From: Escherichia coli O127:H6 str. E2348/69
GTDB lineage: Bacteria > Pseudomonadota > Gammaproteobacteria > Enterobacterales > Enterobacteriaceae
Assembly: GCF_000026545.1 (NCBI RefSeq)
Contig: NC_011601.1
Strand: one strand, 5' to 3'
Length of the DNA stretch: 64,000 nucleotides
Both the position numbers and the translations under genes were made by a program. The notes beneath the pieces were generated by a model, which was not told where the DNA came from, did not search any database, and saw nothing but the letters and a program-made list of their open reading frames with translations. Every line of letters starts with the position of its first letter. Within the stretch, counting starts at the first letter, position 1. Shown here piece by piece: positions 34,835-36,663 of the stretch.

Positions 34835-36663
34835 TGATGAGCGATAATTATTTGCAGCTTAGAAAAATTTTGTTCCATGGCCAAACCAAAGAATCCGTTT
34901 TATCTTTTTCATCCGGTATTAATGTGATTTGTGGGGCTTCCGATACCGGCAAATCATTCCTGGCAGAAACTCTGGATTTTATGCTGGGTGGAACGGAGCT
35001 CAGGGAAATTACAGAATTAGCTGCTTATGCAGAAATAACTCTCGATTTTGTCACCAGTGATGGTCGAAGTTGGCGTCTTCAACGTGCAGTGACTGGCGGG
35101 AATTTCAAGTTAACTGATTTGGATGAGCCAGACTCGGAACCTATCGTGCTAAAACAGAAGTACGTTCGGGGTAAAACGGATAATATCTCCAGTTTTTTAC
35201 TTGAACAGATTGGCTTGCCGAATAAGGAGATTTTGAAAAGTAGTACCAAAGCGACGACTCAGGGACTGAGCTTCCGCAATCTGGCGAGACTTGCTCTGGT
35301 TCAGGAAGATGAAATTCAGCATAAAGGCTCTCCCTTTTGGAGTGGGCAGTTCACAACCAAAACCGCTGAACTGGCAACGGTCAAACTGCTGCTGACAGGG
35401 GGTGATGATTCTGCGGTCGTTGCAGTGAGTGGCGATGGTGTAAGCAATACGTCTCAGATTATGTTGATTGATGAGTTAATTGCGGAGTTATCCATTGAAA
35501 TTAAGGATATGGGAGAAGAGCGTGATGATCTGGCTTCCCAACTGACCCGCCTTGAACAATCTATTGAGAGTCAACGTGAATCGCTCACTGCCGCACAGCA
35601 GCAACTAGAGCAGTTATTACAACAAAGGGGACTGGCCTTTGATGAGCGAAACAAAATCCAGGGACGACTGGATGAGATATCCGAACTACTTGCCAGATTT
35701 ACACTTCTGAATGAGCATTATGTTATAGATATCAACCGTCTGAAATCCATTCAGGAGTGTGGCTTGCTCTTCATGCATATTGACGTGATTCCTTGCCCTC
35801 ATTGTGGAGCTAGTCCAGCTCACCAACACCTGGAACAAATATGTGATGGAGATGTAGATTCAATCATTACTTCAGCAACTGCCGAGATGCAAAAGACCGA
35901 ACGACTTTTGGCAGAGCTGAATTGTACAGTCAGAGATCTTGTCAGCGAAAAGCAACGCCTTGAGAAGCAATACATTGTCCATGAAGAGGATTATTTGCGT
36001 CTTGATAAAGCCATTCGGGAAACTATTGCTCCTGAAGTTGACAGTTTCAGGCACTCGTATGCTGAACTGATCGACGAACGGGCCAGTGTCCAGCAATCTA
36101 TTGATTTGTTCTCAAGATTGGACCGGCTGGAAAGCAGGAAAGTGGCATTACAAAGCGATACTCCGGTAAAAAAAGAAAAAAGTGCGGTGCAAAACGGCAT
36201 TCCAGAGTCTGTTGCCCATAGTCTGTCGTTAAAAATCTCCTCTATATTAAAAGACTGGCATTTCCCCGGAGCATGCCAGGTATTTTTTGACAAAGATACT
36301 TCGGATTTTGTAATTGATGGAAAACCTCGCGGTAGCCGGGGAAAGGGGCTACGAGCAATTACCCATGCGGCAGTCAGTGTCGGACTACTTGAGTTTTGCC
36401 AAGAAAATGGGCTATCGCATCCGGGATTCCTAGTTCTGGATTCCCCTCTACTGGCTTACTACAAACCAGAAGGTGAAGATGATGTAGCTTTGCAAGGTAC
36501 TGACTTGAAAGAGAAATTCTATGATTATCTTGTGAAGCACCATAATGAAGATAGTCAGATCCTTATTATAGAAAATCCGCATCCACCGCAAAGCATGAAT
36601 AAACAGATTACTATGACGGTATTCACTGGTAATCCTAGGGTTGGCCGTTTCGGATTGCTTTGA
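34831..36663 (+). CDS. SMC/Rad50-like ABC ATPase with coiled coil and CxxC zinc-hook-like motif (~610 aa); candidate LmuB-like sensor ATPase
   Basis: N-terminal SMC-head pattern INVICGASDTGKSFLAETLDFMLGG (Walker A); long heptad-rich middle with CPHC at the apex; C-terminal GFLVLDSPL (Walker B-like) and ILIIENPH (H-loop-like); start chosen at the ATG triplet 34831-34839 just after GGAGG (ORF track begins at 34792). Confidence 0.75.
   Translation: MMMSDNYLQLRKILFHGQTKESVLSFSSGINVICGASDTGKSFLAETLDFMLGGTELREITELAAYAEITLDFVTSDGRSWRLQRAVTGGNFKLTDLDEPDSEPIVLKQKYVRGKTDNISSFLLEQIGLPNKEILKSSTKATTQGLSFRNLARLALVQEDEIQHKGSPFWSGQFTTKTAELATVKLLLTGGDDSAVVAVSGDGVSNTSQIMLIDELIAELSIEIKDMGEERDDLASQLTRLEQSIESQRESLTAAQQQLEQLLQQRGLAFDERNKIQGRLDEISELLARFTLLNEHYVIDINRLKSIQECGLLFMHIDVIPCPHCGASPAHQHLEQICDGDVDSIITSATAEMQKTERLLAELNCTVRDLVSEKQRLEKQYIVHEEDYLRLDKAIRETIAPEVDSFRHSYAELIDERASVQQSIDLFSRLDRLESRKVALQSDTPVKKEKSAVQNGIPESVAHSLSLKISSILKDWHFPGACQVFFDKDTSDFVIDGKPRGSRGKGLRAITHAAVSVGLLEFCQENGLSHPGFLVLDSPLLAYYKPEGEDDVALQGTDLKEKFYDYLVKHHNEDSQILIIENPHPPQSMNKQITMTVFTGNPRVGRFGLL

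Follow-up and report, generated by a model that had tools for sequence, protein, structure and literature searches.

The DNA analysed here, a stretch of 64,000 nucleotides (nt) from Escherichia coli O127:H6 strain E2348/69 (hereafter the window), is 100% identical to the chromosome of this enteropathogenic E. coli (EPEC). It carries three adjacent genes, lmuA, lmuC and lmuB, the third of which is close to certainly the LmuB gene of a complete short-type Lamassu (ABC-three component, ABC-3C) defence operon. LmuB is an ATPase related to Rad50 and to the SMC (structural maintenance of chromosomes) proteins, and at the position of the catalytic glutamate of its Walker B motif it has a serine. We consider it moderately probable that this protein, as part of a Lamassu defence operon and with its Ser-type Walker B, works as a slow switch held in the ATP-bound state, the statement being meant as a whole and with the slow switch included. 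The locus itself is an ordinary member of the known Lamassu system.

In Lamassu the effector LmuA is followed by the middle component LmuC and the SMC-like ATPase LmuB, and this is the order found here. The three open reading frames (ORFs) are intact, lie on one strand and are tightly packed, with overlapping or adjacent start and stop codons: lmuC starts 11 nt before the end of lmuA, and lmuB starts with the ATG at 34837, two bases past the lmuC stop. This ATG is the start of the RefSeq coding sequence and is in accordance with the 608 amino acids (aa) of the homologues; a GTG at 34792 was rejected in its favour, and all LmuB residue numbers below are counted from the ATG. The initial annotation, made from the sequence alone, had called the product an SMC-like ATPase, which is borne out by both PADLOC and Foldseek, specifically as LmuB. 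The AlphaFold2 (AF2) model of LmuB, with a predicted local distance difference test score (pLDDT) of 75, gave as top Foldseek matches the LmuB proteins of Salmonella (9hqu_A, 3.5e-16) and Vibrio (9uxh_F), followed by Rad50 and SMC heads (1e-12 to 1e-7). The build is accordingly Rad50/SMC-like: two head halves, one N-terminal and one C-terminal, are separated by a coiled coil that bears a CxxC zinc hook; in the model, helices 229-314 and 340-439 flank C320-P-H-C323.

Conservation was followed in three sets of sequences. The close set holds 120 LmuB homologues of 56-98% identity. When 1.84 billion cluster representatives were searched exhaustively with HMMER, 2,958 LmuB relatives were obtained; the best 150 of these, at no more than 50% mutual identity, form the diverse set together with the query (the representatives below). 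The phage set consists of 68 distinct LmuB relatives on phage contigs (IMG/VR), a biased sample since the contig scan was seeded partly with the patterns D[ST]P and GKGxRA. Motifs were placed on solved structures with HMMER profiles of 32 homologues and then of a more diverse 84 sequences, searched against all PDB sequences, and with hhalign and MAFFT. The 84-sequence profile matched 9hqu with an E value of 8.5e-20 over residues 6-565. A profile of the C-terminal head only returned nothing relevant among the PDB sequences, and full-length profiles were needed. With hhalign, the EPEC LmuB family was aligned to the LmuB alignment of Salmonella, Vibrio and Rhizobium with a probability of 93.9 (E 1.5e-7, 548 columns), the Salmonella sequence having been rebuilt for this purpose with the help of a homologue on a Rhizobium plasmid and of the PDB alignments.

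A canonical Walker B reads hhhhD-E, and in EPEC LmuB the residue at D+1 is S536. The initial annotation had aligned this motif by eye, and the profile alignments to 9hqu together with the conservation show the placement to be right, serine in place of glutamate included. GFLVLDSPL is coded at 36424-36450; within it, the core LVLDSP occupies 36430-36447 and the serine codon TCC 36442-36444. D535-S536-P537 aligns to D570-Q571-P572 of Salmonella LmuB in HMMER, in hhalign and in three MAFFT modes applied to the C-terminal heads, so that LVLD-S-P falls on the LILD-Q-P of the Salmonella and Vibrio proteins, and the 32-homologue profile aligns H510...FVVLDSPLLAYF of EPEC LmuB with H544...FLILDQPSQVYF of the Salmonella protein. 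In the AF2 model, strand 531-535 comes after the long helix 503-523, which is the order seen in all ABC (ATP-binding cassette) ATPases. All three residues, D535, S536 and P537, are invariant in the close set (120/120). In the diverse set, 122 sequences have Ser and 28 have Thr at position 536, none Glu, Gln or Asp, and Ser or Thr is found there also in the 68 phage-borne relatives. The P-loop lysine K39 and the Mg2+-positioning D535 are retained in 144/144 and 149/150 representatives, respectively. The same motif pattern is displayed by homologues on plasmids with as little as 23% identity (Enterococcus, Mesorhizobium and Deinococcus), and two of these three are annotated beside an MC2 gene, the family to which the lmuC product belongs. 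Such conservation indicates that the Ser-type Walker B is a kept clade character and not decay, and that D-[S/T] is what the MC2-associated LmuB clade as a whole naturally carries.

The trait is not new to the family. Short Lamassu LmuBs have been described with a Walker B of the form hhhhD[Q/S/T/E], and reduced hydrolysis has been discussed for them (PNAS 2025, PMC12663957); for the Gln variant the same has been said in a 2023 review and in a Lausanne preprint. The EPEC motifs GASDTGKS and FLVLDS fit the published short-Lamassu consensus, Walker A Gx4GK[S/T] and Walker B hhhhD[Q/S/T/E]. The missing Walker B glutamate, Ser/Thr variant included, is in other words an already published family trait and not a peculiarity of this locus.

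The signature motif deviates as well. A canonical signature reads LSGGQ/E, its Ser and second Gly touching the gamma-phosphate in trans, and EPEC LmuB retains only the second Gly of it. The initial annotation had pointed to a degenerate signature in GSRGKG, and the motif is indeed non-canonical; the serine within that string, however, is not the signature serine, as the aligned positions are G502 and K503. The coding nucleotides of the string, 36331-36348, lie 42-59 nt upstream of position 36390, so that the range 36390-36600 originally given for both motifs holds GFLVLDSPL only. S500 was rejected as the signature serine, being kept in only 87 of the 151 sequences of the diverse set and placed in no alignment on S536 of Salmonella LmuB. 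In the same 151 sequences R498 is found in 148, G502 in 150, K503 in 141, G504 in all, R506 in 147 and A507 in 138. Two registers have to be considered. HMMER, hhalign and MAFFT set GKG on G535-S536-G537 of 9hqu, so that K503 takes the serine position. The MC4-type LmuB of a Bacillus cereus plasmid has the near-canonical LTSGGLRTLTS, with its Ser aligned to Salmonella S536, and its ungapped match to GKGLRAITH assigns G502 to the canonical Ser, K503 to the first Gly and G504 to the second. The G502 register leaves H510 aligned to Salmonella H544 and fits the predicted beginning of the helix at 503. The register is thus uncertain by one residue, and on either alignment the motif lacks the serine and carries a conserved lysine. 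In Salmonella LmuB the signature serine is S536 in EIGS536GSNWLSYH544, and S536R abolishes both the DNA-stimulated ATPase activity and phage defence (10.1101/2025.03.14.643221).

Beyond what had been noticed initially, the Q-loop glutamine and the H-loop histidine of the canonical ABC/SMC/Rad50 site are also replaced in EPEC LmuB, by E157 and N580. The placement of E157 was obtained with hhalign, HMMER and MAFFT, and the residue also aligns to the Gln of the B. cereus FDQDEI. Position 157 is Glu in 143/149 representatives, while the neighbouring Q156 is Gln in just 9/151. A published suppressor, Q162K, is located at the equivalent position of Vibrio LmuB. In the H-loop strand, the 'QviiiEN' of the EPEC clade aligns to 'QIIVLDH' of Vibrio LmuB, N580 falling on the His of 'LDH' in both the Vibrio and the Salmonella protein. 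N580 is found in 148 of 149 representatives, and the preceding position 579 is Glu in 142 and Asp in 7 of 149. Close homologues had suggested H582 as the H-loop His; the candidate was rejected, position 582 being Asp in 67, Glu in 22 and His in 14 sequences. An acid at position 579 was seen in every LmuB clade examined, with the combinations E-N, E-Q, D-H and D-N.

Positions 157 and 503 vary together. Among the representatives the 157/503 pairs are E-K (139), D-R (4), E-Q (3), E-T (1), Y-A (1) and Q-A (1), and among the 68 phage-borne relatives E-K (46), Q-G (19), Q-Q (1), Q-A (1) and D-S (1), all being raw pair counts not corrected for phylogeny. E-K totals 185 over the two sets. A basic residue at 503 was never seen without an acid at 157, and the 21 sequences with Gln-157 and the one with Tyr-157 never carry a basic 503. 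Since the four D-R sequences are not nearest relatives of one another, the D-R pairs suggest repeated, length-compensating double changes. The Q-loop residue of a canonical ABC dimer lies beside the gamma-phosphate and the catalytic water, as does the signature contributed by the partner subunit (PMC9599734), and because of this geometry a contact in trans between E157 and K503 is plausible. In the literature on LmuB that was searched, to which neither Krishnan et al. (2020) nor the motif-logo supplement of the PNAS paper belonged, we found no Q-loop Glu, Lys-containing signature, Asn H-loop or 157-503 coupling.

A subclade of LmuB relatives on phage or prophage contigs (IMG/VR loci L042, L046, L050, L052, L053, L056, L058-L060, L066, L070, L075-L078 and L080-L084) has a Q-loop Gln, the signature S-M-G-G-G, a Walker B D-S-[S/P/A] and an H-loop E-Q with a 'KRMPF' insertion after it. 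It represents another natural version of the LmuB active site in which the catalytic Glu is likewise missing. This subclade and the MC4-type LmuB of the Bacillus cereus plasmid pC1L1 (L008) share with EPEC LmuB the Walker B D-[S/T] and the acid of the H-loop strand (E-Q and D-N); unlike it, they keep the Q-loop Gln and a GGG or SGG signature and are without the E157-K503 pair.

The nearest known relatives are the type II short Lamassu systems of Salmonella enterica (LmuACB; 9hqu/9hqx) and Vibrio cholerae (DdmABC/LmuACB; 9ny5, 9uxh), which have the same gene order. Their LmuBs of approximately 600-660 aa are homologous to EPEC LmuB over the full length, as the hhalign and HMMER scores above illustrate. 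Common to all three are an intact Walker A, the acid before the H-loop position and a Walker B without the catalytic Glu that is followed by Pro (D-x-P-x3-Y-[FY]); the zinc hook is common to EPEC and Salmonella LmuB. The LmuA proteins likewise combine a nuclease effector of the PD-(D/E)xK type, putative in EPEC, with a C-terminal docking domain. The systems differ in the PADLOC clade of LmuB (PDLC03863 in EPEC, PDLC03859 in Salmonella and Vibrio), in the partners (MC2/CTD6 versus MC3/CTD7) and in the nuclease (putatively Mrr-like versus Cap4). In the active site, EPEC LmuB has Ser where the Salmonella and Vibrio proteins have Gln after the Walker B Asp, Glu versus Gln in the Q-loop, G-K-G versus G-S-G in the signature and E-N versus D-H in the H-loop.

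With the heads of Rad50/SbcC and SMC proteins EPEC LmuB shares the fold and the order of Walker A, Q-loop, zinc-hook coiled coil, signature helix, Walker B and H-loop strand. Rad50/SbcC are, in addition, sensors of DNA ends coupled to a nuclease, a further likeness to LmuB. All four catalytic residues differ, however (Q to E, S-G-G to G-K-G, D-E to D-S and H to N), the coiled coil of LmuB is much shorter, and the nuclease, judging from homologous Lamassu systems that have been studied, would be released rather than tethered. Comparable degenerate sites occur in heterodimeric ABC proteins, an example being that of nucleotide-binding domain 1 of CFTR, with the Walker B LLDSP (S573), the same D-S-P exchange, and a non-canonical signature, which binds ATP stably and hydrolyses little. 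CFTR has a second site that remains catalytic, so that degeneracy is confined to one of the two, whereas in a LmuB homodimer the deviation would be present in both; no specific evolutionary relationship links the two proteins.

The lmuA product has a CTD6 docking domain at its C-terminus and a putative Mrr-like PD-(D/E)xK nuclease domain at its N-terminus, with the invariant motif G69-D70-x-G-x-D74 ... Q92-C-K94. Pfam Mrr_cat was matched only below threshold, in 22/30 members of the LmuA family (best E 0.0066). Neither as a single sequence nor as a profile did LmuA give a meaningful match to PDB sequences, and its AF2 model (mean pLDDT 51.5) was too poor to use. Because of the motif and the sub-threshold Mrr_cat matches, the operon is best labelled, provisionally, Lamassu-Mrr. 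Mrr is an effector class already on record for the Lamassu family (including 10.1101/2022.05.11.491447).

At 95-100% DNA identity the same Lamassu operon (positions 33000-37400 of the window) was found in 110 of 5,426 complete E. coli genomes, and 100 of its 114 places in these genomes are plasmids, which makes the chromosomal copy of E2348/69 a minority situation. An identical LmuB is encoded also on conjugative plasmids of E. coli and Klebsiella. CTD6-MC2-LmuB operons occur in Advenella, Mesorhizobium, Deinococcus and Burkholderia as well, and in Enterococcus the three-gene layout agrees, the genes there being unannotated.

The mechanism we favour is the slow switch. Its stoichiometry, DNA-end sensing, effector release and slow hydrolysis are carried over by homology from studied systems onto the observed gene identity, motif placement and conservation. 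By homology to Salmonella and Vibrio, a LmuB dimer would keep a single copy each of LmuA and LmuC sequestered near the zinc hook. DNA ends or hairpins arising in phage or plasmid replication would be bound by LmuB and LmuC, and ATP binding, involving K39, together with engagement of the heads would release LmuA. The released LmuA would tetramerise via its C-terminal domain and cut DNA indiscriminately, resulting in abortive infection. Because the Walker B glutamate is absent, ATP turnover is expected to be slow, and the engaged, ATP-bound state would then be long-lived, an essentially one-way switch and not a motor cycle. The experiments on D-Q proteins are in line with this. Salmonella LmuACB hydrolyses approximately 1 ATP/min and only with DNA, and both K40I and S536R abolish the activity and lose phage defence (10.1101/2025.03.14.643221); Vibrio LmuABC (D-Q) needs millimolar ATP. 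In several Lamassu systems defence is lost when Walker A is mutated, and E. coli infection assays have been carried out with a Lamassu-Mrr system (10.1101/2022.05.11.491447). The suggestion of the initial annotation that the protein binds ATP and engages but hydrolyses slowly agrees with these D-Q data; for the D-[S/T] clade slow hydrolysis is inferred by homology, and the site may instead be re-wired.

Several observations weigh against a slow switch. In one preprint two LmuBs with a deviant Walker B had 'moderate' ATPase rates, like Smc-ScpAB, and a missing Glu is therefore no guarantee of slowness. The ATPase and defence evidence comes from other Lamassu systems, none of which, in the literature examined, would appear to be of the D-[S/T] type. 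The nuclease assignment of LmuA draws on sub-threshold Pfam matches and a motif and stays putative. A Lys at or next to the signature-Ser position resembles the Salmonella S-to-R mutation that blocks head engagement, so the geometry of engagement may differ. Finally, the near-invariance of E157, K503 and E579-N580 and the E157/K503 covariation look like a maintained alternative catalytic site. It is on this last point that the most serious competing explanation is built: the site would be re-wired and competent, with E579 or E157 activating the water and K503 of the opposite head, in a pair with E157, contacting the gamma-phosphate as a lysine finger. On this view LmuB would be a genuine ATPase under regulation, possibly stimulated by DNA, instead of a hydrolysis-poor switch. 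In its favour are the retention of the four residues at no more than 50% mutual identity, the apparently independent and length-compensating D-R pairs, the strict dependence of a basic 503 on an acid at 157, the approach of canonical Q-loop and trans signature to the same water or gamma-phosphate, and the acid at 579 throughout the LmuB clades. Yet the AF2 model has a pLDDT below 50 for residues 156-173, and the sister subclade with Q157 and a GGG signature still has D-S, so that the Q-loop Glu is no general stand-in for the Walker B Glu. The covariation is not corrected for phylogeny and the viral-contig sample is biased by the motif seeds. The E-K pair might just as well form a structural salt bridge apart from catalysis. 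On balance we regard a re-wired competent site in the EPEC clade as unlikely. A slightly lower probability still is given to the view that the site of the MC2 clade has been re-wired and not weakened, with all four canonical polar catalytic residues exchanged, a co-evolving E157-K503 contact in trans at the gamma-phosphate (lysine finger or salt-bridge latch) and the acid at 579 activating the water. We know of no description, for the SMC/Rad50 branch, of an Arg/Lys-finger-like trans element in a natural ABC/SMC-type ATPase.

Two further explanations have far less in their favour. LmuB could be a decayed pseudo-ATPase in a remnant defence island, functioning as a scaffold only or inactive, and the degraded neighbourhood of the operon, with a reverse transcriptase cut to 133-158 aa, integrase fragments and partial pseudogenes, fits such a picture. 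The three ORFs are nevertheless intact, the operon is kept nearly identical in the 110 complete E. coli genomes, where it is mostly plasmid-borne, the deviant residues are near-invariant over hundreds of diverse homologues, as is K39 (144/144), and Walker A is needed for defence in every Lamassu tested; decay is thus very improbable. The placement of the motifs could also be an alignment artefact, LVLDSP not being the Walker B at all and the canonical motifs residing elsewhere. A canonical D-E Walker B and an LSGG signature elsewhere in the protein had been named beforehand as the test of the initial annotation; they were looked for and not found. A regular-expression scan of LmuB returned one other hhhhDE string, IMLIDE (residues 208-213, 35458-35475, + strand), and in the C-terminal head no SGG-type signature was detected. 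IMLIDE fits the Walker B expression, but it is situated in the N-terminal half, in the predicted helix 204-225 at the base where the coiled coil starts, and hhalign aligns it to the coiled coil of Salmonella LmuB; neither D212 nor E213 is among the columns conserved to at least 90% in the 84-sequence alignment. It was rejected as a chance look-alike. Four independent alignment methods, on the other hand, put LVLDSP on the Walker B of solved LmuB, and strand 531-535 follows the signature helix, so that an artefact is hardly credible. The slow, ATP-bound switch is the reading favoured here. The coordinates of the genes and motifs are collected in Table 1.

Table 1. The Lamassu genes of the window and the ATPase and zinc-hook motifs of LmuB.
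Feature	Position	Strand	Remarks
lmuA	33259..34359	+	Pfam CTD6 2.7e-48; PADLOC LmuA PDLC03852 2e-133; RefSeq 'ABC-three component system protein'
lmuC	34349..34834	+	Pfam MC2 1.7e-47; PADLOC LmuC 1.9e-54; RefSeq 'middle component 2'
lmuB	34837..36663	+	PADLOC LmuB PDLC03863 2.3e-176, full length; RefSeq 'AAA family ATPase'; 608 aa
Walker A G33-A-S-D-T-G-K39-S40	34933..34956	+	intact; G33, G38 and K39 in 144/144 representatives
E157 at the Q-loop Gln position (LVQ-E157-DEI)	35305..35307	+	aligns to Q162 of Salmonella/Vibrio LmuB (FQPQ)
Zinc hook C320-P-H-C323-G, coiled-coil apex	35794..35808	+	C320 and C323 in 151/151; aligns with CPMCG of Salmonella LmuB
Signature equivalent R498-G-S-R-G502-K503-G504-L-R506-A507	36328..36357	+	conserved Lys, no Ser at the canonical position
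Walker B F-L-V-L-D535-S536-P537	36427..36447	+	Ser at the catalytic-Glu position, by HMMER, hhalign and MAFFT
H-loop strand Q574-I-L-I-I-E579-N580	36556..36576	+	Asn in place of the switch His, conserved acid before it

The surroundings of the operon were also inspected. A small hypothetical ORF lies 3' of lmuB (36990-37292, + strand), with 100 aa as annotated or 153 aa from an upstream GTG; no family matches were found for it. At its end there is a hairpin (37303-37322, + strand) with a 7 bp stem including 6 GC pairs and a T-run. Since the region has no other strong hairpin of the terminator type, the small ORF may be co-transcribed with lmuACB. It was rejected as a fourth Lamassu component, being absent 3' of lmuB in Advenella and in four plasmid loci. 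Further downstream, a retron msr RNA (37529-37593, + strand; Rfam RF00170, 79.9 bits, E 5e-14) is located directly upstream of a truncated retron reverse transcriptase ORF (37585/37660-38061, + strand) of only 133-158 aa. The latter was recognised by PADLOC (RT_I-A, 1e-48) and by the NCBIfam model of the retron St85 reverse transcriptase (7.7e-33), the matches covering only the N-terminal third of the models. What adjoins the Lamassu operon thus looks like a broken retron. According to RefSeq, the Lamassu-retron block is flanked by integrase fragments and partial pseudogenes (BhsA and a helix-turn-helix protein) at 38185-38574 (- strand) and 32257-32823, and it sits between a ydeQRS-type fimbrial operon and hipBA. 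Flanks of this sort typify a small integrative defence islet that has decayed. The hipBA toxin-antitoxin module (38682-40270, - strand) is intact and located directly past the integrase fragments.

The Lamassu locus was already annotated in RefSeq, and the loss of the glutamate has been published and read as slow hydrolysis, so the trait flagged initially adds little to what is known of the family. In LmuB, ATP binding and engagement are not yet separable from hydrolysis, as the product of the usual E-to-Q exchange is already the wild-type state (10.1101/2025.03.14.643221). The interest that remains rests on a possible re-wired ABC active site with a lysine acting in trans, which we hold to be rather improbable. 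The EPEC clade, with D-S combined with E157, K503 and E579-N580 and with clear covariation, represents another natural solution, and with it a natural experiment, in a genetically tractable E. coli strain.

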